64,000 nucleotides of DNA, taken from IMG/VR virus record IMGVR_UViG_3300045988_145476; one strand, 5' to 3'. Origin of the DNA: a virus. The stretch's first letter is position 1. Each line of letters opens with the position of its first letter. Below, piece by piece: positions 905 through 47,981 of the stretch. The notes under the pieces are model-generated. The model saw only the letters and a program-made list of their open reading frames with translations. It ran no database searches and had not been told where the DNA came from. The position numbers and the translations under genes were made by a program.

Positions 905-1660
905 ATGGAAACCAGTATTAAAAAACGGATTGATATTGTAAAAGCAACCAGTGATTATGAGACTTTAAAAACTCACCTATGCTCATTCTTTGAGAAAGGG
1001 GATTGCCCCGATTGTGTAGGTTGTCGAAAAGCAGAATCCGATATAGACGATTGTCGTTCTTATTATCTTGAACGTATAGTTATTCATCCTATGGATATTT
1101 GGCGTGAAGAGTTCGATACGATAAAAGTTCTTTCTCGTGATAAAGTCGCTGTTGAGGATATTGTCGGTATCGGAGTAAGTTGTGACAGATGCTATATGTA
1201 TGATAAATGCCCGTTATACAAGAAAGGGTATGTGTGCGCAATTGATTGGGGTTCTTCAAGACCTACCAGCCCTAAAGCATTTTATGACTTTCTTGTTGAC
1301 TTGCAATATGAACGAGTACAACGGGCAGCAATATTTGAGAAAGTAGACGGTGGTGTTGCGGACGGTAACTTATCCAATGAGATTGACCGTTTGACTGACC
1401 TTATAGAATCACAAGCCAATCTTAATCGGGAACGATTGAACATCAATATCGAGGCTTCGGGTTCTGCTACTGCCCCCGCTACCGGCGGTGGTCTTCTTTC
1501 CCGAATATTCGGAAGCGGTTCTCCTACACCTGCGGTAGAAGAAAAGAAAACAATCGAAATACCGGCAACTCCGTCTTCACGGGAAGATATTGCCGAAGTA
1601 GCCGAAATAATTGAGGAACCCGAAAAAGTAAAGGTTCCCCGTAAACGTAAGAGCGTATGA
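905..1660 (+). CDS. hypothetical Cys-rich protein with low-complexity acidic C-terminus
   Basis: 251-aa ATG ORF. Clustered Cys pairs (CPDCVGC, CDRCYMYDKC). No family recognised. Confidence 0.55.
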   Translation: METSIKKRIDIVKATSDYETLKTHLCSFFEKGDCPDCVGCRKAESDIDDCRSYYLERIVIHPMDIWREEFDTIKVLSRDKVAVEDIVGIGVSCDRCYMYDKCPLYKKGYVCAIDWGSSRPTSPKAFYDFLVDLQYERVQRAAIFEKVDGGVADGNLSNEIDRLTDLIESQANLNRERLNINIEASGSATAPATGGGLLSRIFGSGSPTPAVEEKKTIEIPATPSSREDIAEVAEIIEEPEKVKVPRKRKSV

Positions 1661-1977
1661 CAACAGTAAAGAAACATCTTCGGAAAAGGAAAAACAAGAA
1701 ATCGGTAGTCCGTAGTTATGTCCGTAAAGACAGAACTCACCGTATCGTGAACGGTGAAAGACAAGTATATGTAGACCATTTCTGGAAACATGACGACTAT
1801 CCCAATGCTCCTAAGCCGGGCTGGTCGTATGAACATTTGATGAAAGAACGCAATAAATTACAGCGTGACTTATCCGAAGGTCTTTCCGGCGCACAAACGC
1901 TTCCCCCTCGTAAATACGGGTTATTAACTCGACGTATCAGAAAGATAAATCGTATCTTAAAATCGAAAGGACGTTAG
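1657..1977 (+). CDS. small highly basic protein, member of the shared N-terminal motif family
   Basis: ATGA overlap with the upstream stop. The N-terminus MTTVKKHLRKRKNKKSVVRSYVRKD is nearly the same as that of the ORF at 46258 (MTTVKTHKRKGRNRVSVVRQHNRKD). Confidence 0.6.
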   Translation: MTTVKKHLRKRKNKKSVVRSYVRKDRTHRIVNGERQVYVDHFWKHDDYPNAPKPGWSYEHLMKERNKLQRDLSEGLSGAQTLPPRKYGLLTRRIRKINRILKSKGR

Positions 1978-26392: not shown

Positions 26393-26422
26393 AGAGTGGC
26401 TTGTGAAAGTCGCTCTTTTTTC
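26393..26422 (+). terminator. rho-independent terminator
   Basis: AGAGTGGC (26393-26400) pairs with GTCGCTCT (26409-26416), giving 8 bp including two G-U pairs. A T6 run follows at 26417-26422. Confidence 0.55.
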
Positions 26423-27072: not shown

Positions 27073-27207
27073 TTTCCATAGATGTTTACAAAAACGCCTA
27101 TTTTTTAATTTAAGCCGATATTGATTATCAGATAGTTAGCAAAAAATCTCCTATGAAAGTATAAAAAACGCAGATTTAGAAATATTTTTACTTTCTAATT
27201 AGATTTT

Positions 27208-27223
27208 GGTTATTGCAATAACC
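27208..27223. repeat. perfect 16-bp palindrome GGTTATTGCAATAACC
   Basis: Read directly. Related GGTTATTG half-sites lie at 26815-26822, 28084-28098 (GGTTATTGTAATAAC) and 28147-28154 (reverse complement). Confidence 0.9.
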
Positions 27224-27428
27224 ACAACTACGTATGTAGATAACCAGTTACGCAGTAGAATTGGTGGTTTATTATGTGTAATTAGTATATAGCTGTATGT
27301 AACTATATGTAATTACCGCAGATTTATTATATAACTACCGGATTAATTGTTCCTGCGTGTTATTTTTCCGTATTAATTAAGTAGGAAATATATTATATAG
27401 AGTAATTGGGAGTTATTTTATTTATCGT

Positions 27429-27681
27429 ACGGCGAAAAATTTAATTTTTGGCGGGATAATTTCTAATTAGCGTATTATAATAAGTAATTAATCACCGTAA
27501 TAAGGAAAGATTTTATTCTCCGTGCGGATTATTCGTATTATCTACGGGAATATTATATGAATTTCTAACTGGAAACCTTTTTACGGCGGAAAATTAAGTA
27601 GTAATTATATTAGTTAGCGTATAAAGCGAAAAACAATTCGGCGAATTTTTAATTTACGGCGGGATAATAGTACGTAGCGTA
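27429..27681 (+). repeat. three copies of a composite ~40-45-bp repeat (CGGCG-A/T run-GGCGGGATAAT-TAGCGTA)
   Basis: R1 27429-27474, R2 27583-27621 (degenerate) and R3 27639-27681. GGCGGGATAAT occurs at 27450 and 27658. TAGCGTA occurs at 27468, 27615 and 27675. Confidence 0.7.
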
Positions 27682-28171
27682 GACAGGATTTCAGTTCACG
27701 GAGCTGAATTTACTGGCAGGGGGGTACCCTTAAATGGAATGCGGCGCACGGTCGGCTTGGGGTAGTACGGTTAGGTAAGAAAGGAGTGGTGGAAAGTCGG
27801 ACAATAATTAGTGTATATATGATAACTTCGGAAGTTTGTGTATGTGTGGTAACTTTGGTGGATACGGGTGGTGTGCGTGTGAAAATCGGTGGTAACGGGT
27901 GAAAAACGGGTGATTTGGAAATGTACTTGAAAATACAGGGTGCGGTTGACGTTTGGTGTGGAAATAAATTGCCGGAAGTTTGGAGTTCTCACTAAATATT
28001 AGTATATTAATATATAATTACTTGTATATAGTACTATGAAAGATATAGTGTCCGGATGTTTGGGATGCTTATCGGTCGGTTATGGTTATTGTAATAACTG
28101 GTAGTCGGTACGGTGGTATTTCCGTTAAATAATGTTATTATATAAACAATAACCAAATATTTTACCGGATA

Positions 28172-28207
28172 TGTTTGGTTATCTTATATAAAGTAACTAT
28201 ATTTGTA
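28172..28207 (+). promoter_or_regulatory. consensus promoter inside 36-bp repeat copy 1
   Basis: TGTTTGGTTATCTTATATAAAGTAACTATATTTGTA. TTTG at 28174-28177, N20, TATATTTG at 28198-28205. It is identical to 30727-30762. Confidence 0.7.
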
Positions 28208-28270
28208 ATGTGAAAAACGAAACGCACCTATCGGTATATTGCTGACGGGTAACCAGAAAATCCTACGACA

Positions 28271-29025: not shown

Positions 29026-29223
29026 ATGAAAAGGATATGTGATTTTATACACGGACGGTTCGGACGCAAAGTTTTGAAACCGGGTTACAGGGAAATATGG
29101 GTTCGCACGATGTATTGCCTGCTGCTCGTAATCGGAGTACTGGCTATGGCGGTGGTCGTGCAAGTGTGGAGCTGGCTGGTCGGTTTCCTTAATGCGATGG
29201 CTTGGGGGACTACGGTATGGTGA
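29026..29223 (+). CDS. small membrane protein
   Basis: 65 aa. Hydrophobic segments 'MYCLLLVIGVLAMAVVVQVWSWLVGFL'. Confidence 0.45.
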   Translation: MKRICDFIHGRFGRKVLKPGYREIWVRTMYCLLLVIGVLAMAVVVQVWSWLVGFLNAMAWGTTVW

Positions 29224-29981
29224 CTATCGGTATATTCGGCAGGGAGTACAGGTTTTGTCGCAGTGTGAAGGCCTCTTACAGTGACCGGCATAATCGTGCG
29301 GTGAAACTTGCGGAAAGGTTCGAGAGCCTGTCCGAGAAGTTTGACGGTATGTTCAGTAGGGGCGGTTGCGGTGAGACGCTCAATTCCCGTCTGGCGCTTG
29401 CCTGCAAGATGATGATGTACACCGGCATCCGTATCGGTAACGAGGGAAGTGCCGAGGGGTATATGACTAAACCGCACCCCAATTCCAAGGAACAGCCCCA
29501 GTTCGTGCAGACGTACGGCCTTACCACGCTTCTTCCCCAGCACATGAGTATCAGACGTGGGAAAGTGTACCTTAACTTTCTTGGTAAGAGACGTGTGGAC
29601 AACAGCTTTGTACTTGACGGTAAACTCGCAGGACAGGTTAGGGACATGTCCGGGTATATCTCCGAGGGGGAAACCCTTTTCGAGATTACTTCCTACGAAC
29701 TTACCAAGTTCATAAAGAAGTATGTGGGCAGACAGTTTACCCCGAAGGACTTCCGTACCATGAGGGCTAATATGTACGCATGGGAAAAGTTCGAGGAGAT
29801 ATGCGAAAGGGAGCTGCCCAGTACCAAGACCGAGTATAACGGAGAGGTTAAGGAAATCGCCACTTATGTCAGCGAGAAACTCAACAATACTCCGGGTGTA
29901 TGTAAGAAAAGCTATATTGATGAACTGCTTTGGGACGAGTTCAGTGACGCCCGTCCCGTAACTAAAAGGAATAAAAAATGA
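29217..29981 (+). CDS. type IB DNA topoisomerase (compact, bacterial/poxvirus-like catalytic domain)
   Basis: All five catalytic-pentad contexts are recognisable: 'TGIRIGNE' (Arg), 'YGLTTL...LNFLGKRRV' (Lys), 'FTPKDFRTMRAN' (Arg), 'LNNTPGV' (Asn/His position) and 'CKKSYI' (Tyr). I prefer the ATG at 29217 over the TTG at 29202. Confidence 0.8.
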   Translation: MVTIGIFGREYRFCRSVKASYSDRHNRAVKLAERFESLSEKFDGMFSRGGCGETLNSRLALACKMMMYTGIRIGNEGSAEGYMTKPHPNSKEQPQFVQTYGLTTLLPQHMSIRRGKVYLNFLGKRRVDNSFVLDGKLAGQVRDMSGYISEGETLFEITSYELTKFIKKYVGRQFTPKDFRTMRANMYAWEKFEEICERELPSTKTEYNGEVKEIATYVSEKLNNTPGVCKKSYIDELLWDEFSDARPVTKRNKK

Positions 29982-33997: not shown

Positions 33998-34105
33998 TAA
34001 CGCTCGGAATTATCTTCGTGATATGTGCTTGCTGCACGAAACGAACCTTTTGGAAATGCGTGTTTTGGACACTCGCTATATTATCAGTATTTTAAAACAG
34101 TAATT

Positions 34106-34414
34106 ATGGAACTTAGAAGTACAAACGTTCAACGGATTTGGAAAGAAACTGTTCTCTGTGTTATCGGAGAAGACCTCGGTATCAATAAACAAAAGTTCGA
34201 GGAGAATAAAAGTAATATTAAATCAATGCTCTCGCAGATTAAGACCGAAGACGGTTATGCGTATTGTTGCGGTTGCCACATACGGACTGACGGTGAACAA
34301 TGGACACCTTACATTCAGATAATCGAAATGCTTCTTCGTATGGGAAAGAAAATCGGTTGCATAAAATATGTCGGAGCATTGAAAGAACATACATTAATTA
34401 AAATCATACTATAA
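34106..34414 (+). CDS. hypothetical protein
   Basis: I prefer the ATG at 34106 within ORF 34025-34414. Confidence 0.45.
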   Translation: MELRSTNVQRIWKETVLCVIGEDLGINKQKFEENKSNIKSMLSQIKTEDGYAYCCGCHIRTDGEQWTPYIQIIEMLLRMGKKIGCIKYVGALKEHTLIKIIL

Positions 34415-34698
34415 TGGCAAAGATAAACAGACCTAAAGGAACACCCATTGAACTTGCGGCCATACGCAAGCGTTTACGGGAAGTAGTGATTGATAAATAT
34501 GGAAGTATCCCTAAATTCCTGCGTACTGACGAGGGAATTAAACTTGGCGGTATGCGTATAAAGCCTTGTTTCTACGATAAGGGTACGGTTAGTATATCTG
34601 TATTAAATAACCTTTGTCAGTATTTCGGCATCGGTGAATTAACTCGAAAAGTTCGCATTATACGAACGGTTGATTATTTCCTGAATACTCCTATTTAA
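34414..34698 (+). CDS. hypothetical protein (possible HTH)
   Basis: 94 aa. 'VSISVLNNLCQYFGIGEL' is weakly XRE-like. Confidence 0.45.
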   Translation: MAKINRPKGTPIELAAIRKRLREVVIDKYGSIPKFLRTDEGIKLGGMRIKPCFYDKGTVSISVLNNLCQYFGIGELTRKVRIIRTVDYFLNTPI

Positions 34699-34753
34699 TA
34701 ACCTAAAAAGTTCCGCAAATCGCCCGAAAATGCGTGTTTTTTATGCTAAATTT

Positions 34754-34805
34754 CCTACACCGTTACGACTTATGAAAGTTTTTTCTATCTTTGTAACGGT
34801 GTAGG
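34754..34805. promoter_or_regulatory. -7 box bracketed by a perfect 13-bp inverted repeat (operator-like)
   Basis: CCTACACCGTTAC (34754-34766) and GTAACGGTGTAGG (34793-34805). TATCTTTG at 34786-34793 overlaps the right arm by 1 nt. The ATG is at 34835. Confidence 0.6.
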
Positions 34806-34834
34806 ATTTAATCTATTAGCTAATAGTATTTCGT

Positions 34835-35305
34835 ATGAAAAAAGAGAAAACAATTAAAACCTATCAGCGTCGCACGAAAACCGGAAAGACTGTGACGGTG
34901 AGAGCGCATAAATCTTCCTACGAGGCTGGTAACGGTAAACGTGATACTGTGAAGACCCGTTCCAAGAAAAATGCGGGCGTTGAATTTGAGAAGCGTACTT
35001 CCATGCCCGACCCTAAATTGTCGGCAAAGGATTATTTGGATGCCTTGAAAAAACGACAGGCTGATTTACGTAAAGAGAAAATCAAAAAGACCAAACGCCC
35101 AGTCAACGGTAGCATTACTGGTCTTGAACCGAAAAAGAAATCTCCTGCAAAAAAGAAGGGTGCTTCTCGTAGAGAAAAACCATCTGAAAAAAATGCGAAG
35201 AAACTTATATATAGTTCAAGCTCGGATGTGTATAAGAGAGATAGTAAGGGAGAACTTATTAAAGTTGGAAAATGGGATGGTAAGAAACCCTCTGTAAAAA
35301 AGTAA
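34835..35305 (+). CDS. Lys-rich basic protein, shared N-terminal motif family (tandem copy 1)
   Basis: MKKEKTIKTYQRRTKTGKTVTVRAHKSSY..., then 'KKNAGVEFEKRTSMPDPKLSAKDYLDALKK'. It is collinear with copy 2 over about 75 aa. Confidence 0.65.
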   Translation: MKKEKTIKTYQRRTKTGKTVTVRAHKSSYEAGNGKRDTVKTRSKKNAGVEFEKRTSMPDPKLSAKDYLDALKKRQADLRKEKIKKTKRPVNGSITGLEPKKKSPAKKKGASRREKPSEKNAKKLIYSSSSDVYKRDSKGELIKVGKWDGKKPSVKK

Positions 35306-35309
35306 CGCT

Positions 35310-36221
35310 ATGAAAAAGGAAAAACAAGTCAAATCATATCAACGCAGAACCAAGTCGGGTAAAGTGGTTACTGTAAAAGCCCATACTGCAAAGTATGATG
35401 CTGCTGAAAAAGCTAAGGAAGCTGCCAAGAAAAAAGGTGCTGGTAAAGAACTTGAGGATAAGTTCGGTAAAAAGAAAATGCCTGACCCTAATCTTTCTAT
35501 GAATGAATACCTTGATGAATTGAAGAAAGGAAAAAAATCTGGGTCTAATGAGGTGGCTAATGAGGACGAGAAAACTCAACGTAGTGGTCTTTCATCTTTG
35601 GAAAAGAAACTTACCTCTAAGGAGAGTAAGCTTAAAGAGTTAAAGAACTCCCATTCTACTATGAAACGGAGTGACCCCAAAAAGTTGGCACTCGCTAAGA
35701 AAATCCAAAAATTGCAGTCTGATATTATTGAGACTAAGAGTGCTGTGGCTTCACAAAGAAAGGTTGTTACAGACCTGAATACTTCAAAGTCTAAAAAACG
35801 CTCTGAGGGTGAAGGTGCTTCTATGGTTGAACATAATGGGAAGCAGTATTTTGTCAATTTTAAGACTGGTAAGGTTGAAACTTCTTCTGGAAAACCTATT
35901 AGTAGTAATGGAGCTATCGCAAAAGCAATTTTATCTAAACATAAGGAGAACCGTGTTACTCCTAAAGATAAGAAACCTATGGTACAAACTACCAAGAGTT
36001 CTGCTAAACCGACATCTTCTGGACAGGCATTTACGGCCGCTGAATTTAAAGAATGGTATCGTGGTACAGGAAGTGCTGCCGATAAAAAAGTCGCTAAAGC
36101 ACTCCGTTCGCAATTAGGACGTTCCGGATACCGTAAATTTGAAGACGAAGCCATTAACAATTATTCCTCAAGAGGACATTTGTCGATGTTCAAGAGAATA
36201 GGAGCAAATATCGAAAAATAA
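35310..36221 (+). CDS. Lys-rich basic protein, shared N-terminal motif family (tandem copy 2)
   Basis: MKKEKQVKSYQRRTKSGKVVTVKAHTAKY..., then 'KKGAGKELEDKFGKKKMPDPNLSMNEYLDELKK'. 303 aa. Confidence 0.65.
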   Translation: MKKEKQVKSYQRRTKSGKVVTVKAHTAKYDAAEKAKEAAKKKGAGKELEDKFGKKKMPDPNLSMNEYLDELKKGKKSGSNEVANEDEKTQRSGLSSLEKKLTSKESKLKELKNSHSTMKRSDPKKLALAKKIQKLQSDIIETKSAVASQRKVVTDLNTSKSKKRSEGEGASMVEHNGKQYFVNFKTGKVETSSGKPISSNGAIAKAILSKHKENRVTPKDKKPMVQTTKSSAKPTSSGQAFTAAEFKEWYRGTGSAADKKVAKALRSQLGRSGYRKFEDEAINNYSSRGHLSMFKRIGANIEK

Positions 36222-36241
36222 AATTCAAAAGGTATAATATT

Positions 36242-36613
36242 ATGTCAATACAAGTAAAGTCCTACACATATAAGCGTAATGGGAAAACTATTGTTGTGAA
36301 AGGATATACAAGAAAAGGAAATTCTGCACAGAGTAAATCTCCTCGTAGTAGAAAAGGAGCAGGAGGTGAACTTAAAGACAGGGTTTTGCCTAAAATTAGG
36401 TATAATTCTCTGCACGCTATGGAAGATTATCCTTCAACAAATGCTCCACAAAGCCGTCATGGACAAAATTCAAAGGCTGATTGGGAGGGTTATGTAGCTC
36501 GTTTACAAAAGGCGATTAGTATGGAAAACTTACATGGAGGTAGTAAGGAAAGAATTACTAAGCTAAAGGGTAAACTTCGCAGTGCAGAGAAAAAAGTAAG
36601 GACTTGGAAATGA
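36242..36613 (+). CDS. basic protein, shared N-terminal motif family (tandem copy 3)
   Basis: MSIQVKSYTYKRNGKTIVVKGYTRKG..., then 'RKGAGGELKDR'. Confidence 0.6.
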   Translation: MSIQVKSYTYKRNGKTIVVKGYTRKGNSAQSKSPRSRKGAGGELKDRVLPKIRYNSLHAMEDYPSTNAPQSRHGQNSKADWEGYVARLQKAISMENLHGGSKERITKLKGKLRSAEKKVRTWK

Positions 36614-36625
36614 CCGTCAATGCTA

Positions 36626-36695
36626 TTTAGGTAATTCAAATTAAATTTTTATCTTTGCAGGTGAACATCAGTAAAATGGTGTTCACCTATTTTTG
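36626..36695 (+). promoter_or_regulatory. promoter-like element followed by a leader hairpin and T-run
   Basis: TTTA at 36626-36629, N20, TATCTTTG at 36650-36657. Then GGTGAACA (36660-36667) pairs with TGTTCACC (36680-36687), followed by TATTTTTG. Confidence 0.45.
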
Positions 36696-36715
36696 CGTCT
36701 AAAGCGTAGTAAGGT

Positions 36716-36928
36716 ATGAATATATCTTCGTCAAATATCAGAACGGCTGACTATGATAGAAAATCACGGACGTTGACTATGGTCTTTATCAATAGACCCC
36801 GATGGGTATATACCTATTATAATGTCCCCCCTACTGTATGGACACGTTTTTTACAGTCAAACAGTAAAGGACAATATTTTTCTGCCGCTATCCGAGACAT
36901 TTACCAGTATTCGAGAACAATCAAGTAA
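36716..36928 (+). CDS. KTSC-domain protein
   Basis: 'SSNIRTADYDRKSRTLTMVFINRPRWVYTYYNVPPTVWTRFLQSNSKGQYFSAAIRDIYQY' follows the KTSC pattern (SS.I..v.Yd...~.L.v.F..g..Y.Y..VP..vy..l..a.S.G.yfn..Ir..Y). Confidence 0.75.
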   Translation: MNISSSNIRTADYDRKSRTLTMVFINRPRWVYTYYNVPPTVWTRFLQSNSKGQYFSAAIRDIYQYSRTIK

Positions 36929-36945
36929 CTTAAATATCAAAGACT

Positions 36946-37482
36946 ATGGCTACAATTACAAGAGCGTTTGAGTTCGACGCAGCACATCGTGTAATGAATG
37001 AGAAAGTAAAATGCTTCAATTTGCACGGGCACCGTTTTAAAGTGGAAATGACTTTTGAGTATAACTCCAAGAGTCTTCTTGGATACGCTATTGACTTTAA
37101 GGAGATAAAGCGTATTGCCTGCGGATATATTGATGAACATTTAGACCACGCTTGCCTACTTAACCCCGAAGATACCGAGCTTATTGAGCTGTGCAGAAAA
37201 CAAAACTGGCGTCTGTGGGTTATGGGAATGGGTGTGTATGGTGACATCAACCCGTCTGCGGAGAATATTGCTTCCGAGCTTTTCTATATTATCAGACAGT
37301 TATTCATTAATGAGCCTTGCGGTTTGCGTCTTACAAACTTACGGCTGTATGAGACACCGAATTGCTGGGTTGATTGTTCCCGCATTGATTATGTGGCTAC
37401 AAATATGTTCCTTGAGAATCTTGGTACATGGAGAAAACAAAAGGGTTCAATGAAGTACGACATAAGAGAAGACCATGAGTAA
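36946..37482 (+). CDS. queD: 6-carboxy-5,6,7,8-tetrahydropterin synthase (QueD/PTPS family)
   Basis: 'FEFDAAHRV...KCFNLHGHRFKVEMTFE' contains the QueD Cys-x3-His-Gly-His zinc/catalytic motif. 'DFKEIK' is typical. It overlaps the terL start by 8 nt. Confidence 0.85.
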   Translation: MATITRAFEFDAAHRVMNEKVKCFNLHGHRFKVEMTFEYNSKSLLGYAIDFKEIKRIACGYIDEHLDHACLLNPEDTELIELCRKQNWRLWVMGMGVYGDINPSAENIASELFYIIRQLFINEPCGLRLTNLRLYETPNCWVDCSRIDYVATNMFLENLGTWRKQKGSMKYDIREDHE

Positions 37483-40198
37483 AAAGAAAAAAATAACGCC
37501 TAAAGAAGAAGGATACGTATTTCCTACCGAGGGTGGTAGAATCGAAGACATCCACACCGAAGAACTTGCGGGTAAATCGGTATCGTTTGACGCACACGAA
37601 ATCACTTCCAAGATTATAGAGTTCGGTAAAATACTTACCGGACTTTCTTTGTATAAATACCAAGAAGAAGCGGTGTATGCGATTATTTATTCTATCATAA
37701 CTTTTTCCGGCGATGTGAAAACAATGCTTTTCAGTCGTCAATCAGGTAAATCGGAAGCTATGGCTTTTGTTATTGATACGCTTACCGTATTACTTCCGGC
37801 CCTTGCCAAAGTGATACCCGATTTGGAGCAATTCTCCAGCGGTTTCCGTATCGGATTGTTTGCTCCGCAATCAGACCAAGTTGTTACTACCTATTCTCGT
37901 GCAATGACCCGTATAAATTCGGCTAATGCGGAGATGGTTCTTAGTGACCCAGATATTGACGTGTACTTAGAAAGTTCCGCCCGTCTTGAACTTTCAAACG
38001 GTTCTTATCTTGCCGGACAGGTTGCGAGTAAACAGTCCAAGATTGAATCAAAGACGTATGATTTGGTAATAGTCGAAGAGGCACAGGACGTTGACGACCT
38101 TATTGTTCAGAAATGTTATGCTGAGGATACTTTAATAAATTTGCCCTATGGAGATTATGCCACTATTAAAGATGTGGTTGAGAGAAAACTTCCCGTGTTA
38201 ACTCCAGAGGGAAAAATGAAACCGTCTGCATGGCATAATACGGGTGTTCAGGGTGTTTATAAAATCACATTATGCAACGGCAGGGAGCTTGAAGTAACTT
38301 CTCAACATAGACACTTGGTTAGACGTAGGAATGTTAAGGAGTCTTTTGAACTTCATACAGATAAACTAAAAGTTGGTGATAGACTTGCTGTTCCCGATTT
38401 TATTCCGACATTCGGACATTATGGTGACTATTCTATGGGAGTAGTTATCGGTTTTTTGCTTGGTGACAGATGCTTTAGCGGAAGTCAAGTGCAGTTCTGC
38501 GGTTTTGAAGAAGTTTGGAATTTCGTTTCCCCTCATGTGGAAAAACTCGGCTGTGTTGCTTTTACCAATTGCTTTAATAAAAACGGTTTATATGAGGGTA
38601 CTTTCCGAAACGTTGATGGAAAAAATACTCCTAATAAAATAATTGGTCTTTTGAAAGATTTAGGTCTTTGGGGATTAAAAGGAGAGAATAAGTTTATACC
38701 TAATTTACCCTACTCTAAAGAGTTTCTTGTAGGCCTTATTTGCGGACTATTTGAAAGTGATGGAAGTGTACAGGCTCTTAAAAAGGGTAACATACGATAT
38801 GCGTCAATTTCTAAGAAGTTGGTTTATGGTTTAAGCCTTCAATTGCAAAAGTTTGGAATACACTGCTCTATATCTGTAAAGAGTAACATTGGTAAAGGAG
38901 TGTATGAAAATACCAAGCCCTTATATGAATTGCATATTAGGGATAACATTTCGGTTATACGTTTTTGTGAGAATTTTCGCCTTGTAACAAAAAATGAGAA
39001 GCTCGATAAGGCTAAGTTAATTGCTGAAAGAATTAATAAGAAAGCCGGAGCTACTAAGGTATATGATGGTAACAGATATGTAAGAATCAAGTCTATTGAA
39101 TACACAGGTGAAAAACAGACCTATTGTGTAACGGTTCCTACCGAGGGGCATTGGATAATCGCTAACGGAATTGTAAGTGGTAACTCAATAGAACCTATGT
39201 TATCTGCCACTGGTGGAACACTTATAAAGGTAGGAACTACTGGTATGGTTAAAAACCATTTTTGGTATGAGATACAACATAACAAGAATATTGACCGGAA
39301 AATAGTAGACCCCCGTATAAAGAATCATTTCGAGTATGACTACAAGCGTATTATCCATGACCGTAGACTTCAATACGATATAGACCATAAACGTTTCCAC
39401 CTTAACTATGAAGCGGATATTCAACGTAAAAAGGAACGTTGGGGTGAAGACTCACAAGCTTTCAAACTCGCTTATGCGCTTATTTGGGACTTAGAAAGCG
39501 GTATGCTTCTTTCCGATAAGGAGTACAACGGTATCATAAACAGGAAACTCGGTTTGCAAGATGCCCGTAATGAGGATTACGTGGTTGCCGGCCTTGATAT
39601 TGGTAAGCATCCTGCCGAAACGGTTCTTACTATTGTCAAGGTATTCCACGGTGAAGATGTATTCGACCGACCGTATAAACAGATACTTGCGTGGGCTTGT
39701 CTTGGTGGTCTTGATTATGAGAGCCAGCATCATGTGATAATGGATTTTATTGTAGAGTTTAATATTTCTGTTATCTTTGCGGATTATACGGGTGTCGGTA
39801 AGCCAGTTGTTGACCGTCTTATGTATGCCTGCGGAGAGTATGTGACAATAGAACCTTATACGTTCACCGCACAAAGCAAATCGGATATGTGGTTTAACTT
39901 CCTTTCCGATATACAGACCCACCACCTTATTGTACCGGCCAATAAGAAGACCCGTATGACACCGGAGTACATGAAGTTTGAGGAGCAAATGAAAAATTGC
40001 CAGAAGTACTATAATGGGACATATTTGGTATGTGAAAAGAGTGAGGGTTACTTTGATGATATGGTAGACAGTTGTGCCCTTGCTTGCATGGCCGCTACTT
40101 ATGAACAGGAAGTAAAGGAAGAAATGGAAGTTACTCCGAATCCTTTGTATGAAGGAGTAACAAGTACCATACAAGCGATAAGAAGACATTCATTTTAA
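37475..40198 (+). CDS. terL: terminase large subunit, interrupted by an intein
   Basis: Walker A 'LFSRQSGKSE' and Walker B 'YDLVIVEEAQ'. The C-terminal half has the size and layout of a nuclease domain. It is followed directly by the portal gene. The 907-aa length is explained by a 357-aa insertion. Confidence 0.9.
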   Translation: MSKKKKITPKEEGYVFPTEGGRIEDIHTEELAGKSVSFDAHEITSKIIEFGKILTGLSLYKYQEEAVYAIIYSIITFSGDVKTMLFSRQSGKSEAMAFVIDTLTVLLPALAKVIPDLEQFSSGFRIGLFAPQSDQVVTTYSRAMTRINSANAEMVLSDPDIDVYLESSARLELSNGSYLAGQVASKQSKIESKTYDLVIVEEAQDVDDLIVQKCYAEDTLINLPYGDYATIKDVVERKLPVLTPEGKMKPSAWHNTGVQGVYKITLCNGRELEVTSQHRHLVRRRNVKESFELHTDKLKVGDRLAVPDFIPTFGHYGDYSMGVVIGFLLGDRCFSGSQVQFCGFEEVWNFVSPHVEKLGCVAFTNCFNKNGLYEGTFRNVDGKNTPNKIIGLLKDLGLWGLKGENKFIPNLPYSKEFLVGLICGLFESDGSVQALKKGNIRYASISKKLVYGLSLQLQKFGIHCSISVKSNIGKGVYENTKPLYELHIRDNISVIRFCENFRLVTKNEKLDKAKLIAERINKKAGATKVYDGNRYVRIKSIEYTGEKQTYCVTVPTEGHWIIANGIVSGNSIEPMLSATGGTLIKVGTTGMVKNHFWYEIQHNKNIDRKIVDPRIKNHFEYDYKRIIHDRRLQYDIDHKRFHLNYEADIQRKKERWGEDSQAFKLAYALIWDLESGMLLSDKEYNGIINRKLGLQDARNEDYVVAGLDIGKHPAETVLTIVKVFHGEDVFDRPYKQILAWACLGGLDYESQHHVIMDFIVEFNISVIFADYTGVGKPVVDRLMYACGEYVTIEPYTFTAQSKSDMWFNFLSDIQTHHLIVPANKKTRMTPEYMKFEEQMKNCQKYYNGTYLVCEKSEGYFDDMVDSCALACMAATYEQEVKEEMEVTPNPLYEGVTSTIQAIRRHSF
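38114..39184 (+). mobile_element. intein with LAGLIDADG homing-endonuclease domain
   Basis: Starts with Cys ('QK|CYAEDTLINLP'). Block B is 'VTSQHRH'. Two LAGLIDADG motifs: 'VVIGFLLGDRCF' and 'LVGLICGLFESDGSV'. Ends 'HWIIANGIVSGN|SIEP' with a +1 Ser. 1071 nt, in frame. Confidence 0.85.
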
Positions 40199-40209
40199 AA
40201 TAAACGACT

Positions 40210-41784
40210 ATGGGAATTGATGTTGGTGGAATGAACCCTACGGGAGTTGGTAGCTATAACGGTTATCCGGGTTCTAAATATTGGAATGTGGACTCTCGTC
40301 CTCTTAGCGAGGCTACTAATGTATTGCGCTCTTTCGTATTGCAGAATATCGTTCAAGATAACCAGTGGGAACTTGACCGTATTACTAAATACTACTTGTA
40401 TTGGAAGTTCTATGACGGGATGCATTATAAGGACTTCAATGATGGGATGCTTTCTTTCAACTATATCAAGGCATTTATTGATAAGGTTAACATGTTCCTG
40501 CTTGGAAACGAGGCTTTCAATTTTCGTGTGCAGAGCTATTATACCACCCAAGTTGATAAGGAAGTTGAGAAGAACGCTGAGGAACTTATGATGTACCACT
40601 GGGGTAAGTCCGATAAATTGCAGCTCGCCTATGAAATGCTCCAGATGGGTAGTATTACTGGTGATTGTTGGCTCGGTGTTAATTGGGAAGAAGAGGAACG
40701 TTACTGCCGTATTTCTGTTTATGACAGCCGTCAGTGCTTCGTTACATTTAAGAACGGAGATTACAATAGACAAGAAAGCTTTATGGTTCGTATGCCCCTC
40801 GACCAGAACTCCAATGAGAAACATTACCGTTTGTACGTGGTTCGCTGGACGGAAGAAAGTTACGAGACTTGGTACCAGACTGATGTTTCCATTGAGGAGA
40901 GTAAAGTCGCCAAATACGAATACCAGAGAACTGATAACCCGTATGGCTTTATACCAGTAGTCCATATAAAGAATAAGCCTAACTCTGCTGGGTATTACGG
41001 TAAATCGGACGCAAATGATATTCTCAAAATCAATAAGATTTATAACGAGATTATGCAACAGTTGAAAGCCGTAATTGATTATCATGTTACACCGACAACG
41101 GTAATTACCGGAGCTTCTGCTAAGTCGCTTAAAAAAGGCCTCGGCCAAATATGGTCTGGACTACCTGCCGAAGCTAACGTGTTTAATCTTGGCTTGGATG
41201 TTGACCTTTCCGCTACGGTGAATTTTGCCAAGGACTTAAAGACAGCCATGCACGAACTTTCCGATGTTCCGGAAAACGCACTCGGTAAAATTCAGGCTAT
41301 CAGTAATACTTCTGCGGCCGCTTTACAAATTACTTATCACCCGCTGATACAACAGGCGAATATCAAAGCTCTTACTTATGGTGAGGGAATTACCAAAGTA
41401 AACAGCATGATACTCCGGATGCTTCAAGTAATGGACCCCGATAATTCACGTTTGAAGAAACTGCTCCGGAAGTCCAAAGACTTTTTAGTTGAAAACAAAA
41501 TCGAGCCTGTATTCGCTTACGGTTTTCCGAAAGATAAAATGGATGAACTTCAACGGGCACAACTTGAATTGCAAATGAAGTTGAGTTCCCGTAAGGACAT
41601 TATGGAACGTATGGGTAAACAAAATATTCCCGAACTTCTGGATGAAATTGATGAAGATACCATACATCAGGCGATGGTTCAAGAACAAATTAACCGTCTT
41701 TCGGGTTTTGGTACTGTGAGTGAACAAGCCGGTGAAAATACTGGCGAAGATACTGGTGAAAACGGTCTGGAAAATGAAGAATAA
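40210..41784 (+). CDS. portal protein
   Basis: 524 aa, immediately after terL. '...ISNTSAAALQITYHPLIQQA...' resembles the SPP1-gp6-type portal core (SG.ALk..Y.PL). Acidic C-terminal tail. Confidence 0.8.
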   Translation: MGIDVGGMNPTGVGSYNGYPGSKYWNVDSRPLSEATNVLRSFVLQNIVQDNQWELDRITKYYLYWKFYDGMHYKDFNDGMLSFNYIKAFIDKVNMFLLGNEAFNFRVQSYYTTQVDKEVEKNAEELMMYHWGKSDKLQLAYEMLQMGSITGDCWLGVNWEEEERYCRISVYDSRQCFVTFKNGDYNRQESFMVRMPLDQNSNEKHYRLYVVRWTEESYETWYQTDVSIEESKVAKYEYQRTDNPYGFIPVVHIKNKPNSAGYYGKSDANDILKINKIYNEIMQQLKAVIDYHVTPTTVITGASAKSLKKGLGQIWSGLPAEANVFNLGLDVDLSATVNFAKDLKTAMHELSDVPENALGKIQAISNTSAAALQITYHPLIQQANIKALTYGEGITKVNSMILRMLQVMDPDNSRLKKLLRKSKDFLVENKIEPVFAYGFPKDKMDELQRAQLELQMKLSSRKDIMERMGKQNIPELLDEIDEDTIHQAMVQEQINRLSGFGTVSEQAGENTGEDTGENGLENEE

Positions 41785-41811
41785 GGTATTAACCGTTAAA
41801 ATTTAATTGTT

Positions 41812-41819
41812 TACCTTTG
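41812..41819 (+). promoter_or_regulatory. -7 box TAccTTTG
   Basis: Exact TAnnTTTG in the 113-nt gap between the portal gene and the next gene. No clean -33 box. Confidence 0.4.
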
Positions 41820-41897
41820 CAATTTAAAAAATAAGGCGTATTTTTGATGCGCTATCAGTAGAAATCATAGTATGTTTCACATTTAAAATTTAGAATT

Positions 41898-42095
41898 ATG
41901 GCTGGACTACAAACGTTAGACCCCAAAAATCCCGAAGCTCTGCACGATATAGGGCAGAACAAAGGTATGCAGGTAAGCGAGAAGTTCGTGAATCCGGGTA
42001 CACCGGACGCTCCTCTTGTAAACAGAGAACAAATGACACAGGCTACCATTAAAGGTAACGGTGCGGACATCTTGAAAGCAAACCTCATTAAGTAA
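41898..42095 (+). CDS. small hypothetical head-module protein
   Basis: 65-aa ATG ORF. It shares a 12-nt leader with the gene at 43968. Confidence 0.45.
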   Translation: MAGLQTLDPKNPEALHDIGQNKGMQVSEKFVNPGTPDAPLVNREQMTQATIKGNGADILKANLIK

Positions 42096-42134
42096 ACCAA
42101 CAATTTGTAAAACTTCTAATTGTAGAAAAGAACA

Positions 42135-42887
42135 ATGAACGAAGACGAAAGAAAAGTAGGAATACCGGAAAGTATTACGATTAATGGCGTTACTTATTCT
42201 GTAAAGGATACTCCAGAACTGCAACAGTTCATTCAATCAGTCGCCAAAGTAGAAAAAGCTAAATTGTACTCCCAGTTTGAGAGTATGAAGCGGCAAATTG
42301 ATGCCCTCGGCAAAGTACAGGTTTTACCGGAAACATCCACTGTACAAGAAATGCTCGAACAGGTTAAAAGTACACTCAAAGAGGATTTGCGGAATGAACT
42401 TCCCTCTCTCCTTAAAGAAGTTGTTCAACCAGTACTTACCGCTACCGAGCAATCCCGTTTGAATGAAATTGAAGCGTTCAAGGAAAAACTTTTGAAGGAA
42501 AACGAGGGAGCCTGCTTCCCCGAACTTGTAGAAGGAAACACACGAGAAGAGTTACTCGCATCTATGGAAAAATCAAAGAATCTCCGTGCTAAGTATAGCG
42601 CTCCTTTCATTAATCCAAATGCGGATACTCACGTAACAGACCCGTTGCTTGAAAAACAAAGAGCGGAAATGATGGGGCAACAATCTACTCCTACGCCAGC
42701 TCCCGCACCTGCTCCCGCACCTCAAGCACCGTCTACTCCTACGGTTCCACCGGCAGCACCACGTGTTCCCTCTCCAGAGGCTTCCGAACCGACTAACATC
42801 AAACGGATGTCAATGTCAGAGTTTGAAAAGAACCGTGAGCAGTTGAGAGCACAGCTTGAACAGACTTACGGTAACGGAACTCTCTAA
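42135..42887 (+). CDS. scaffolding protein (putative)
   Basis: It lies between the portal and capsid genes. Long helical, charged sequence with a 'PTPAPAPAPAPQAPSTPTVPPAAP' linker. Confidence 0.55.
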   Translation: MNEDERKVGIPESITINGVTYSVKDTPELQQFIQSVAKVEKAKLYSQFESMKRQIDALGKVQVLPETSTVQEMLEQVKSTLKEDLRNELPSLLKEVVQPVLTATEQSRLNEIEAFKEKLLKENEGACFPELVEGNTREELLASMEKSKNLRAKYSAPFINPNADTHVTDPLLEKQRAEMMGQQSTPTPAPAPAPAPQAPSTPTVPPAAPRVPSPEASEPTNIKRMSMSEFEKNREQLRAQLEQTYGNGTL

Positions 42888-42921
42888 GACAAGTAATTAC
42901 AATTAAAATTTAAAGCTCTTT

Positions 42922-43920
42922 ATGAATACACTTTTGTTTATTGTGGTAGCCTTTGTGCTTCCATTCTTATCCGGATTGTTCTTTGGTACTACCACTTCGG
43001 CGGGTGCCAATGAGGGCGGATATACTTCAATTCCCCAAGCAGTTCGTGATTTCTATTCACGTGAAGTTCTTTTCCAAGCACAGCCCCGTTTACGTTTCTT
43101 GCAGTTCGCTAAGGTAAAACGTGACTTACAAGCGGTACGAGGAAAGTCTATTGTTTTTGTTAAATATGATAATTTGGCCGGCGGTGGTTCACTGGAAGAA
43201 AGTGATGTATTGACACCCGAAGGTATGAGTACTTCGGAAATCATTTGTCCAGTTAAAGAACAGGCTAATTCCGTACAAGTAACAGAATATTTATTGCGTA
43301 CATCATTGTTGGACGTATTAGGAGACGCTTCAAAATTGCTCGCTAATAACATGGCGGTTGTTTTGGATAAGCAATTCCGTGATACCGTATTGGGTACGAC
43401 TAACGCTGTTTATGGTGGAGACGCTACCTCACTTACAACACTTGCAGCCGGTGACGGATTTACTACTAAGACCGTTAAAGACGCAGTTGAAACGCTTGCT
43501 ACACATAACGCCCCTCGTATTAATGGAGACTACTATGTATGTATAGCCCACCCGCATCAATTAAGACAGCTTCGTGATGATAGTAACTGGATTAATGCCA
43601 ATACTTATATGGGCCGTCGTCAGTTGTATATCGGAGAGGTAGGTATGTATGAAGGATGTATCTTCATTGAAACTACACAGATGCCTGTATTGGACGCTGC
43701 TGCTATTAAGGAAAAATATGGTGACGGAGCCACTATCTCTACCGCTTATGAAGCAGTGTTCTTCGGAGATAACGCATACGCATGGGGTGTAGCTCTTGAC
43801 GTTGAGCTTCGTGACGATGGTGTTGTAGAACTCGGCCGTAAACACACACTTGGTTGGTACGGTATTTGGGGTACTACTATCCTCGAAGAAAAGAATATTG
43901 TAAAGGCTCTCACCGCATAA
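42922..43920 (+). CDS. major capsid protein
   Basis: 332 aa, after the scaffold gene. 'LRFLQFAKVK...GKSIVFVKYDNL...LTPEG...ICPVKEQANSVQVTEYL' resembles the N4-gp56/HK97-fold capsid families, from memory. A hairpin follows the stop. Confidence 0.7.
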   Translation: MNTLLFIVVAFVLPFLSGLFFGTTTSAGANEGGYTSIPQAVRDFYSREVLFQAQPRLRFLQFAKVKRDLQAVRGKSIVFVKYDNLAGGGSLEESDVLTPEGMSTSEIICPVKEQANSVQVTEYLLRTSLLDVLGDASKLLANNMAVVLDKQFRDTVLGTTNAVYGGDATSLTTLAAGDGFTTKTVKDAVETLATHNAPRINGDYYVCIAHPHQLRQLRDDSNWINANTYMGRRQLYIGEVGMYEGCIFIETTQMPVLDAAAIKEKYGDGATISTAYEAVFFGDNAYAWGVALDVELRDDGVVELGRKHTLGWYGIWGTTILEEKNIVKALTA

Positions 43921-43924
43921 CGGT

Positions 43925-43943
43925 GGGAACCTTTTCCCTTTTT
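43925..43943 (+). terminator. weak terminator hairpin after the capsid gene
   Basis: GGGAA (43925-43929) pairs with TTCCC (43934-43938) across a 4-nt loop. A T5 run follows. Confidence 0.35.
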
Positions 43944-43967
43944 AAATTCATCTAAAAAATTTAGAAT

Positions 43968-44243
43968 ATGGCTAAAGTTAAAAATCCCGTAGACACAGAG
44001 CTTGAAGAAACTCTGAATAATGAAGAAAGAAATGAAACCCAAGCCCCACAGGAAGAAGCCCATGCTCCGGAACCTACGCCAGTGGTGAACACCCGCACAA
44101 AGAATGTGCGTATTCGTGTAGTCGAAGACGTTGATTGTATTGTAGCGCAAAAACGTTATACGTACAAAAAGGGTGTAGATGTTGCAGTGCCTACTGATGT
44201 AGCAGCTATTTTATCAAACTCAAAAAAAGCGTATAGACTATAA
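43968..44243 (+). CDS. hypothetical head-module protein
   Basis: 91-aa ATG ORF with an acidic N-terminus. Confidence 0.5.
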   Translation: MAKVKNPVDTELEETLNNEERNETQAPQEEAHAPEPTPVVNTRTKNVRIRVVEDVDCIVAQKRYTYKKGVDVAVPTDVAAILSNSKKAYRL

Positions 44244-44246
44244 TCT

Positions 44247-45227: not shown

Positions 45228-45228
45228 T

Positions 45229-45810: not shown

Positions 45811-45812
45811 TC

Positions 45813-46256: not shown

Positions 46257-46257
46257 T

Positions 46258-46566
46258 ATGACAACTGTAAAAACGCATAAAAGAAAGGGACGTAATAGAG
46301 TCTCTGTTGTACGGCAGCACAATCGTAAAGATAAAGTGTCTGCCTTTCGTGGTGCTAAGACCTTTAGTTCCGCAACACGTGAAAATATGGCTGATAAGGG
46401 GACTGCTTTACCGGACGGTTCTTATCCGATAAAAAGTAAGCGTGATTTGGCTAACGCTATTTCTGCCTACGGTCGTGCAAAAAACCCAGAAGTGGTGAAA
46501 CGTTGGATTAAGAAACGTGCGAGAGCACTCGGTATGTGTGATATGTTACCCGCTAAATGGAAATAA
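46258..46566 (+). CDS. basic protein, shared N-terminal motif family
   Basis: The ATG at 46258 gives MTTVKTHKRKGRNRVSVVRQHNRKDKVS. The C-terminal half is 'LPDGSYPIKSKRDLANAISAYGRAKNPEVVKRWIKKRARALG'. Confidence 0.6.
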   Translation: MTTVKTHKRKGRNRVSVVRQHNRKDKVSAFRGAKTFSSATRENMADKGTALPDGSYPIKSKRDLANAISAYGRAKNPEVVKRWIKKRARALGMCDMLPAKWK

Positions 46567-46567: not shown

Positions 46568-46903
46568 ATGAAAAGACATCGTGTTACACGGCATTGCAAG
46601 TCAGGAAAGTGTATTACCTATTGGAGAGGTAAAGAGGGTTCCCGTAGATTTGGTGAGGGTTCTGAATTTGAAAAGAAATTTTCTTCTTCCCGTGTAAACC
46701 GGATTAACAGAGCCTATGATGAAGCTGGAGTTTCCGCACCGAAAGGTAAGGGAATACATACAGTCGCTTTCCATGAACGTGCTACCGCTATTATGGGTTC
46801 TATGAAAAAAGGCAATAAACCCGTTAATAGAAACATGGCTTATGCGATTGCCATGAAACAACTTGGCCGTAAGAAGTCAGTTCTTAAACCACATAGGAGA
46901 TAA
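46568..46903 (+). CDS. basic protein, divergent member of the shared N-terminal motif family
   Basis: The ATG at 46568 gives MKRHRVTRHCKSGKCITYWRGKEGSRRFGEGSEFEKKF. Confidence 0.5.
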   Translation: MKRHRVTRHCKSGKCITYWRGKEGSRRFGEGSEFEKKFSSSRVNRINRAYDEAGVSAPKGKGIHTVAFHERATAIMGSMKKGNKPVNRNMAYAIAMKQLGRKKSVLKPHRR

Positions 46904-47126: not shown

Positions 47127-47599
47127 TGGGTAAGTTTCCTAAGATGCCTAAGTCTTTGCTCCGACTTCCACCGGGTTTCAAGAAACCTAAAGTGTCCGAT
47201 TTCAAAGACGATATGCAACACCTCGGAGAGGAAATCGCTGAGGAATTTAAGGAGACTGTCATTAACAATATCGAAAACAACGAGTACGGATTTCCTCTTG
47301 CAGAATCTACGGTAAAACGGAAAGGTTCTTCAACCCCGTTAATAGATAGTGGGCAACTTGTAGACTCTATCTACCGTGAAGGGACTTCCGTTTCCGTAAA
47401 GAATACCCCACGTGATGATAGCCCGCTTACTAATCTTGAATTGGCTATGGTACAAGAATACGGTACGAAAGACCGGCATATTCCTGCTCGTCCAGTATGG
47501 AGAAATACCTTTCGTGATTTTAAGGAAACCGCCCACGAGCGCATTTCCGATTTTTTAGAGAAACCAAAATTCAAAGACAGTGGAAGAAGTTCAGATTAA
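47126..47599 (+). CDS. virion morphogenesis / head-tail joining protein (HK97 gp10- or Mu G-like)
   Basis: 'LAESTVKRKGSSTPLIDSGQLVDSI...VQEYGT..RHIPARPVWR' resembles the family pattern (..kg...pLidtG.L..si ... e.Gt...iPaRPf). Confidence 0.5.
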   Translation: MGKFPKMPKSLLRLPPGFKKPKVSDFKDDMQHLGEEIAEEFKETVINNIENNEYGFPLAESTVKRKGSSTPLIDSGQLVDSIYREGTSVSVKNTPRDDSPLTNLELAMVQEYGTKDRHIPARPVWRNTFRDFKETAHERISDFLEKPKFKDSGRSSD

Positions 47600-47981
47600 A
47601 CCTTATAAACGCAGAGGTAAAAACGGTTCGATGGTTTCTGTAAGCGGTTATACCCGTAGAGTTGGACGTAAAGGACAACGCTCTCCCAAAAGGGAGAAAA
47701 AGTCTTCTTCCAACGCTGCTGCACCGGGTTCCGAATTTATCAATAAAAAAGCTGCTGCCGAAAGCGTGAAAAAACGACCTCTGACACCCAAAGAAGAAAA
47801 ATGGATGCGTGATTGGGATGCCGCTGCCCGTAAAGCGAGTATGCGGAACTCCTCTTTTGCATACGACCGACAAAAAGGAATTAACAGTTATTCCGCTAAG
47901 GAAGAACCCAAGAAGTCTTCCATGTCGGATATAAAGAAACTAACCAAACGAGTATTTAACTTTATAAAGAAGAAAAAATAA
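47580..47981 (+). CDS. basic protein, shared N-terminal motif family (GTG start)
   Basis: (GTG)MEEVQIKPYKRRGKNGSMVSVSGYTRRVGRKG, then 'APGSEFINKK'. There is no in-frame ATG before the motif. Confidence 0.5.
   Translation: MEEVQIKPYKRRGKNGSMVSVSGYTRRVGRKGQRSPKREKKSSSNAAAPGSEFINKKAAAESVKKRPLTPKEEKWMRDWDAAARKASMRNSSFAYDRQKGINSYSAKEEPKKSSMSDIKKLTKRVFNFIKKKK

Follow-up and report, generated by a model that had tools for sequence, protein, structure and literature searches.

A conserved N-terminal hairpin module on very basic proteins of a Bacteroides phage lineage, tentatively read as an address tag for the phage head

Against host defences, a phage relies first on the proteins that it packages along with its genome, and outside T4, P1, N4 and the giant phages we know of no means to recognise such proteins from their sequence. 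Here we analyse a 64,000-nucleotide stretch of viral DNA (IMG/VR record IMGVR_UViG_3300045988_145476, in the following the window), in which a first-pass annotation made without database searches had pointed to three consecutive genes at 34835-36613 (the trio), whose lysine-rich products share a basic N-terminal motif with those of four further open reading frames (ORFs). The motif had been likened to the capsid-targeting sequence (CTS) of T4 internal proteins or, alternatively, taken for a nucleic-acid-binding beta-hairpin.

Five described systems come closest, the last being the nucleic-acid-binding beta-ribbon arms taken up below. The T4 CTS, a peptide of about 10-20 amino acids (aa), binds the scaffolding core and is removed by gp21 (PMC7411985). 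In phage P1, at most the first 30 residues of DarB suffice for head loading, and the cargo acts in anti-restriction (PMC9024508). The propeptides of phiKZ and SPN3US are 110-130 aa long and are served by a dedicated protease, gp245, with an A-x-E cleavage motif (PMC7411985). Polyvalent proteins of phages and plasmids unite 2-15 effector or enzymatic domains in one polypeptide, and the passages considered here of the describing paper by Iyer, Burroughs, Anand, de Souza and Aravind (2017) predict that the class is packaged and injected and count Alt-like ADP-ribosyltransferases among the classes predicted or known to be so (PMC5512222).

The three ORFs of the trio and their N-termini were found exactly as first reported, and the signature is present in each of the four others, so that seven ORFs carry the tag (named by their start positions: 1657, 34835, 35310, 36242, 46258, 46568 and 47580). 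Every copy lies at the extreme N-terminus; in the four others the signature starts from residues 1-7 on. An alignment of 35 sequences gave the common template [VI]-K-x-[YH]-x-R-[RK]-x-K-x-G-K-x-[VI]-x-V-[KR]-x-[HY]-x-[RA]-K, followed by a spacer of 6-20 residues and the box G-x-G-x-E-[FL]. The box had been claimed for the trio, where it is indeed found (NAGVEFE, aa 46-52; GAGKELE, aa 43-49; GAGGELK, aa 39-45), but had been overlooked in 47580 (APGSEFI) and 46568 (GEGSEFE); in 46258 it reads GAKTF where the orthologues read GAKEF, and in 1657 it is degenerate, so that six of the seven ORFs have the box. The sequences behind the motif had been called otherwise unrelated, and the cargoes do differ, except that 34835 and 35310 also share MPDPxLxxxxYLDxLKK. 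The description of the proteins as very basic is accurate: the seven are exactly those in the window with a K+R fraction of at least 0.24 (the next highest is 0.20), and they have isoelectric points (pI) of 10.1-11.3 and net charges of +20 to +37.

Hidden Markov models (HMMs), each built from the external orthologues of one family only, were compared with the six-frame translation of the window (1054 stop-to-stop segments). The model of family A, to which 35310 belongs, retrieved 47580 (E=5e-5), 36242 (E=0.04) and 46568 (E=0.07), and its six best segments among the 1054 were all motif ORFs; family B (46258) and 1657 (family D) matched each other with E=2e-7 and 3e-8, and under all models the matches with E<1e-4 were motif ORFs only. 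The copy in 46568 (family C), already singled out as divergent, is the weakest member in profile search (E=0.035-0.07). The tags of 34835 and 35310 are alike at 20 of 29 residues, with 6 identical codons, and synonymous sites are near saturation within the otherwise conserved tag; since residues are kept while codons differ, the peptide is held by purifying selection and does not stem from recent duplication. The tag is a genuine, previously undescribed N-terminal module on differing, very basic proteins.

The tag is also conserved far beyond this genome. A word-indexed search with the seven N-termini yielded 97 unnamed proteins in four orthologue families, and an exhaustive profile search of 1.84 billion representatives, the kind of scan that the first-pass annotation had proposed, matched 577 clusters at E<=1e-3, 126 of them at E<=1e-10. 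In about 130 of the best 150 clusters the tag occupies residues 3-53 and is followed by a cargo of 56-707 aa; across 121 cluster representatives whose overall identity is below 50%, residues 1-30 of the tag stand at 79% identity. The cargoes are almost always basic (median pI 9.8; 99% of those exceeding 120 aa lie above 8) and have essentially no Pfam or PHROG match; a domain of about 58 aa, EFKEWY...SSRGH, occurs in many of them (84 of 121 family-A relatives have it), and some carry [KR]-P-[VI]-G-[GST]-G-x-[TN]-G-x-x-P-K-K linkers in repeated form. Further small families pair a B-type hairpin with an A-type GAGEEF box, which ties the families together. The cargoes fall into two groups, a conserved one of small proteins (families B, C and that of 47580) and the fast-evolving, recombining family A, the latter a possible reservoir of injected factors for host takeover or anti-defence. 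In 185,579 species-representative genomes the family-A tag was missing, bar one cellular tandem-hairpin protein; a prophage origin was rejected for this reason, and the result suggests that the tagged phages are not common prophages.

AlphaFold2 (AF2), given 52 family-A sequences (35310, aa 1-72), predicts a two-stranded hairpin (E4-7/E10-13, turn 14-18, E19-22/E25-28), with values of 80, 94 and 84 over residues 1-30 in the predicted local distance difference test (pLDDT). A helix follows at 31-40, and a second one (46-53) starts inside the box, whose G-x-E-[FL] core is conserved 6-20 residues after the hairpin. The early guess of a beta-hairpin has thus been strengthened by a confident prediction of about 25 residues (pLDDT 80-94). 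Because K, Y/H and R alternate on both strands, one face of the hairpin would be cationic and aromatic and the other valine-rich. That the motif is not a named family also stands: Pfam, PHROGs and NCBIfam returned nothing meaningful for the seven proteins, 120 relatives and selected cargoes, neither the family-B profile nor the tag profile matched a PDB sequence, PDB fold searches with both AF2 models (families A and B) gave no significant match, and in BFVD the only matches were uncharacterised homologues from gut Myoviridae contigs.

Our preferred interpretation, which we hold tentatively, is that the module is an address tag that binds polyanions or DNA and loads basic proteins that are head-internal or DNA-associated. 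It is predicted to consist of an amphipathic cationic hairpin of about 25 residues (strands ~4-13 and 19-28, turn T-K-S-G-K), a short helix and the G-x-G-x-E-[FL] box capping a second helix, and would serve as an address or anchor, not as a catalytic domain, on seven small, strongly cationic and largely disordered proteins. The hairpin would grip a polyanionic partner, which during assembly may be the acidic procapsid interior, because scaffold, portal and capsid protein all have a pI of about 5 (5.1 for each of the three). After packaging, DNA would become its partner, through electrostatic docking followed by a hand-over, so that the cargo would become part of the head, remain attached to the genome and, at infection, probably depart together with it. 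We infer the steps of procapsid or DNA binding, presence in the virion and ejection; the idea that the proteins are packaged, processed and ejected is an analogy with T4 internal proteins.

The neighbourhood and the cargo lend support to the capsid-targeting part of the original proposal. The trio lies just upstream of the genes for the KTSC protein, QueD, TerL and the portal, and 46258, 46568 and 47580 are placed with near-zero gaps between the capsid and sheath genes. Relatives have added tagged genes between TerL and portal (L003) or between the core genes for a 326-aa and a 147-aa protein (L014). The C-terminal region of 46258 (query aa 34-102, tblastn) recurs at the C-terminus of the portal of Caudovirales GX15bay and also ends the capsid maturation proteases of Gordonia phage ChisanaKitsune (gp30) and Microbacterium phage Cece (gp70); in these phages the domain gets into the procapsid by covalent fusion to a head protein, and here it bears the tag instead. 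L017, at the position syntenic to family B, has the same tag in front of a different, Cys-rich cargo of 81 aa. In Bacteroides phage BS162P1, family C has an orthologue of the same length (gene 00027), which was seen in 350 collection blocks. For 47580, gene callers choose an internal ATG that truncates the hairpin; orthologues with an upstream ATG (P0098, L018) keep it in full.

Cargo is exchanged even between phages that are 99% identical. The window's kin is the virulent myovirus BS162P1 (OP172706.1, 88.9 kb, a sewage isolate on Bacteroides salyersiae, host strain BSC162, annotated nearly throughout as 'hypothetical'), and positions 34000-40500 are 99% identical over the 84% that aligns. At the trio the flanks are 97-99% and the tags 98-99% identical, but in BS162P1 the first gene has another C-terminus, the second another middle and end, and the third is wholly missing; this third gene is present in the relative L032.

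Likeness to the T4 CTS of IPI, IPII, IPIII and Alt lies in the short N-terminal peptide on unrelated basic proteins near morphogenesis genes and in a cargo that varies between close kin. The module here is, however, about 50 aa long, with a cationic hairpin and a G-x-G-x-E box, and no protease gene was recognised. The Dar proteins of P1 have no consensus N-terminus (PMC9024508), whereas a clear consensus is seen here on at least seven proteins per genome and in hundreds of clusters. The inner-body proteins of phiKZ and SPN3US likewise form paralogous families, and their A-x-E resembles the G-x-E of the box, but these are giant phages with T4-like head genes and no hairpin motif, while the head module here is of the SPP1 type. 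In polyvalent proteins the same hairpin occurs repeatedly between domains or near the N-termini, beside portal and ADP-ribosyltransferase genes, and the genes here also accompany portal, terminase and virion genes; the window's proteins are nevertheless small and have no recognised effector domain. The passages of the polyvalent-protein paper considered here do not describe this hairpin and use the word only in unrelated senses (PMC5512222). Finally, the arms of HU/IHF, the Tn5 transposase hairpin and the finger of the coronavirus N protein are also long, two-stranded, Lys/Arg-rich hairpins with aromatics on one face, an analogy of shape only, as there is no sequence relationship and the shape matches are non-significant (E>2). 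In its behaviour the module is like known capsid-targeting systems (T4 CTS and P1 DarB; PMC7411985, PMC9024508). It differs from them in length, fold, charge and its consensus across many proteins, in that no protease is recognisable, and in being reused in other contexts.

Outside this lineage, the hairpin is found in three settings. P0147, a protein of 1936 aa, has an N-terminal polyvalent-type InPase domain, an HExxH motif and four internal hairpins, three of them after G-x-Q-[LMI]-G-M-F and the third hairpin after G-Q-Q-L-R; it is encoded on a 94.6-kb phage contig (L027; Logan ERR12421933), where it adjoins an ART-PolyVal protein of 1968 aa and where three neighbouring proteins have a KGEQLGLF...hairpin near the N-terminus. 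P0155 (885 aa, HEMGH motif) has five hairpin matches in the profile search, three of which were re-detected locally; its gene follows a portal gene at a distance of 1.4 kb and immediately precedes a pair of ADP-ribosyltransferase genes, of which one, like the gene of a 164-aa neighbour, also encodes the hairpin. In this contig (L030; SRR12927082), [IL]-x-E-A precedes each hairpin, and the flanking boxes of the two unrelated phage contigs, G-x-Q-[LMI]-G-[LM]-F in L027 and [IL]-x-E-A in L030, may be lineage-specific versions of the same two-part signal. The third setting is cellular: small secreted proteins combine a Sec signal peptide with Ala/Pro-rich spacers and a tandem pair of VKGYTRKTKSGKxVTVKGYTRK hairpins (P0146, P0151, P0152, P0173, P0274 and L033 5641-6120, the last on CAWIET010000004.1, a 2.16-Mb contig of an Armatimonadetes metagenome-assembled genome).

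These secreted proteins weigh against a head anchor, since a hairpin used in them is not a capsid-specific signal, and they are joined by several other points. The gene 1657 lies outside the structural block, within a DNA-modification operon whose order QueC, DpdA-N, DpdA-C, D, x, QueE is conserved in the relative L034. The head-module proteins, scanned singly, matched no protease family, although a divergent protease is possible; the early region, scanned as two concatenated polyproteins, gave none either, in a weak scan that missed the QueE found by PHROGs, and both scans left out the tail half of the window and about 25 kb of the genome beyond it. With the shallower alignment of 22 family-B sequences, AF2 leaves residues 1-30 disordered (pLDDT ~50), and a fold is given to the three-helix C-terminal domain alone. 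Geometrically, nucleic-acid-binding hairpins (Tn5 transposase, the N-terminal domain of coronavirus N, Alba) superpose best, all with E>2; polyanion binding is proposed from charge and modelled shape, the head anchor leaves the role of the G-x-G-x-E box unexplained, and the literature search returned no paper mentioning BS162P1 or the motif strings. The DNA-modification operon and the secreted proteins argue that the hairpin binds polyanions or DNA in general and is not an address reserved for the capsid. A cationic hairpin gripping DNA or other polyanions, which here would serve as the N-terminal anchor of head-associated basic proteins, would be the simplest account across all contexts. The two alternatives offered at the outset, capsid targeting and a nucleic-acid-binding hairpin, are therefore probably both partly right. 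A wider claim, that the hairpin is a portable 'load-and-ride' tag of several unrelated phage lineages (gut Bacteroides myoviruses and phages with polyvalent and Alt-like ADP-ribosyltransferase proteins), which places cargo in the capsid and holds it on the genome for joint injection, seems to us distinctly doubtful.

The main rival, because of the DpdA-linked member, is an arm with which phage proteins that stay in the cytoplasm, and are never part of the virion, bind DNA; they could be small regulators, proteins that condense DNA or resemble nucleoid proteins, or helpers in 7-deazaguanine insertion of the DpdA type. The common N-terminus would then reflect one shared manner of gripping DNA. 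We regard this rival as rather unlikely, though well ahead of the remaining alternatives. The embedding of family D in the conserved QueC, DpdA, D, x, QueE cluster would be well explained, as would the pI of 10-11 in all seven proteins and an isolated long cationic beta-ribbon whose best, albeit non-significant, shape matches bind nucleic acids. However, six of the seven genes, and the added copies in relatives, lie within or immediately upstream of the packaging, head and neck block, one cargo domain is a portal or protease appendage elsewhere, the hairpin recurs in the putatively packaged class of polyvalent proteins, and the secreted cellular versions would not ordinarily meet DNA. The promoters point both ways. 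The trio carries a host-type promoter like early genes, but structural operons share the box: in the window as a whole the Bacteroides -7 box TAnnTTTG shows no excess (75 copies versus about 65 expected), but 22 of its 46 plus-strand copies fall within the intergenic 11.8% of the sequence (p=1.7e-9), and the boxes precede early and structural genes alike.

A propeptide in the style of T4 or phiKZ is improbable. The hairpin would then target the prohead core and a prohead protease would cut after the Glu of the G-x-E box, and likewise at the G-L-E or G-P-E sites of [KR]-P-V-G-G-G-x-T-G-x-E-P-K-K linkers, freeing the mature cargo. The box, conserved in nearly all families, does fit the S/A/G-x-E (AXE) specificity reported for SPN3US and giant-phage proteases, which recalls that of T4 gp21 (PMC7411985), family-A proteins resemble polyproteins with repeated G-rich linkers, and the [IL]-x-E-A before each L030 hairpin is a T4-like site. 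Against this stand the fruitless protease scans of head module and early region, which also count against the T4-like form of capsid targeting, and an SPP1-type head module, in which the scaffold is separate and the capsid protein has neither a delta domain nor a conserved G-x-E site. Moreover, AF2 makes the box the start of a helix, and the Glu is missing from many linkers. An A-N-E in the capsid protein was considered as a maturation site and rejected, as this N-terminal A-x-E is not conserved among orthologues.

Cationic amphipathic beta-hairpins invite comparison with thanatin, tachyplesin and arenicin-type peptides. Owing to the secreted cellular homologues, a minor and very improbable alternative is that the hairpin binds lipopolysaccharide or membranes and helps ejected proteins to cross or remodel the Bacteroides envelope, with kindred roles in the secreted bacterial proteins; the Sec signal peptides with two tandem hairpins, the amphipathic residue pattern and the Cys-x-x-G-K-Cys turn of family C would suit it, but neither a signal peptide nor a membrane segment is present in the window's tagged proteins, the portal- and protease-type cargo and the DpdA-linked member point inward to DNA or capsid, and PDB searches gave no sequence or fold match to antimicrobial-peptide entries. 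A chance likeness of lysine-rich, low-complexity N-termini is scarcely credible, for although the short motif has a biased composition and the match of 46568 is marginal (E=0.035-0.07), the families detect one another, the N-terminal position is strict, 126 clusters match at E<=1e-10, the columns are conserved despite saturated synonymous sites, and AF2 gives a confident hairpin.

The tagged genes and their neighbours are listed in Table 1. Nearly every gene of the window is on the plus strand, and the trio would form a transcription unit of its own, bounded by the -7 box and a strong terminator-like hairpin.

Table 1. Positions of the tagged genes, their elements and the surrounding genes in the window
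Feature	Position	Strand	Remarks
Split DpdA	28-855 + 905-1660		two ORFs, both matching phrog_887; 7-deazaguanine DNA-modification set
Tagged gene, family D	1657..1977	+	106 aa, pI 11.1; overlaps stop of DpdA C-terminal half
Family D hairpin	1666-1728		aa 4-24; then a second, degenerate hairpin-like stretch
QueE	2524-3243		7-deazaguanine set (PHROGs)
GTP cyclohydrolase I	20414-21088		7-deazaguanine set
-7 promoter box, Bacteroides type	34786..34793	+	TATCTTTG; 49 nt upstream of the trio's first gene
Tagged gene 1 of the trio	34835..35305	+	156 aa, pI 10.5
Gene 1 hairpin	34853-34921		aa 7-29
Gene 1 box	34970-34990		NAGVEFE
Gene 1 element	35003-35053		MPDPKLSAKDYLDALKK
Gene 1 linker	35093-35140		KRPVNGSITGLEPKKK
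Tagged gene 2 of the trio	35310..36221	+	303 aa, pI 10.1; prototype of the 577-cluster family
Gene 2 hairpin	35328-35396		aa 7-29; helix after it
Gene 2 box	35436-35456		GAGKELE
Gene 2 MPDP module	35478-35528
Gene 2 EFKEWY...SSRGH domain	36030-36203		conserved; aa 241-298
Tagged gene 3 of the trio	36242..36613	+	123 aa, pI 10.5
Gene 3 hairpin	36254-36316		aa 5-25
Gene 3 box	36356-36376		GAGGELK
Terminator-like hairpin	36659..36698	+	12-bp stem and T-run
KTSC-domain protein (PF13619)	36716-36928		stand-alone
QueD	36946-37482		7-deazaguanine set
Head-neck morphogenesis block as a whole	37475-48867	+	no protease family matched
TerL with intein	37475-40198	+	907 aa; LAGLIDADG endonuclease in intein
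SPP1-type portal	40210-41784	+
Scaffold candidate	42135-42887	+	acidic, helical
Major capsid protein	42922-43920	+	phrog_1357
326-aa core protein	44247-45227	+	conserved, acidic; between capsid and neck genes
Tagged gene, family B	46258..46566	+	102 aa, pI 11.3; ATG start, alternative GTG start at 46249
Family B hairpin	46267-46329		aa 4-24
Family B box remnant	46348-46368		RGAKTFS
Family B conserved part of three-helix C-terminal region	46405-46563		ALPDGSYPI..DLANAI..GRAKNPE, aa 50-102
Tagged gene, family C	46568..46903	+	111 aa, pI 11.2
Family C divergent hairpin	46568-46633		C-x-x-G-K-C at turn
Family C box	46652-46672		GEGSEFE
Neck1/tail-completion protein	47126-47599	+
Tagged gene, 47580 family	47580..47981	+	133 aa from GTG start, pI 10.6; overlaps end of Neck1 gene
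47580 hairpin	47595-47660		aa 6-27
47580 box	47721-47741		APGSEFI
Sheath-like protein	51218-52939

The lineage, one of human-gut Bacteroides phages, is very common in gut metagenomes, where one core protein was found in 350 collection blocks, 165 of them with contigs of 50-200 kb. For the 326-aa core protein there are 350 relatives, of which the best 120 are 64-98% identical, and no family, name or PDB match, and the corresponding region of BS162P1 is likewise unannotated; PDB sequence searches with this protein, the scaffold and the capsid protein returned nothing useful. Between its gene and 45813 lies a free-standing HNH/NUMOD homing endonuclease gene (~45229-45810), present in BS162P1 and L031; a group I intron around it was rejected, as there is no Rfam match and the gene is simply missing at the same, empty site of L032. 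The N-terminus of the capsid protein (42922-43010) has a hydrophobic, transmembrane-like leader of about 22 residues, followed by a conserved FFG[DE]TTSAG..GGY; the character of this leader, unusual in capsid proteins, is kept across all orthologues, but its sequence is not. Relatives L003, L013 and L014 have a TerL of 549-553 aa without the intein. The KTSC gene is kept between the trio and QueD/TerL in every relative examined, and the 7-deazaguanine set includes a QueC in L034.

Elsewhere in the window there are a protein with Tad2-like (Thoeris anti-defence) and crAss001_48 domains (13536-14252), a sigma-70 region-2 protein (15190-15651), a Dps/ferritin-like protein (25770-26222) and a type IB topoisomerase (29217-29981). 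An AT-rich region of about 2 kb (26223-28270, GC 0.35) has only short ORFs, none longer than 73 aa, and is dense in inverted repeats and in short direct repeats with TAATTAG; it may be a replication origin or regulatory region.

If the tentative reading as a head address is correct, the conserved tag would be a sequence handle for cataloguing injected or head-internal proteins among several hundred clusters of dark matter, would direct attention to a rapidly evolving cargo cassette by which host range may be set, and would supply a candidate peptide for loading foreign proteins into the capsids of Bacteroides phages. Should the more doubtful load-and-ride idea also be true, the hairpin would mark a large hidden repertoire of injected effectors, no fewer than 577 clusters, and foreign proteins onto which it is grafted could be delivered into gut Bacteroides. 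Even if it were only a DNA-binding arm, it would represent a small, widespread and undescribed fold common to head genes, a 7-deazaguanine operon, polyvalent proteins and secreted bacterial proteins.

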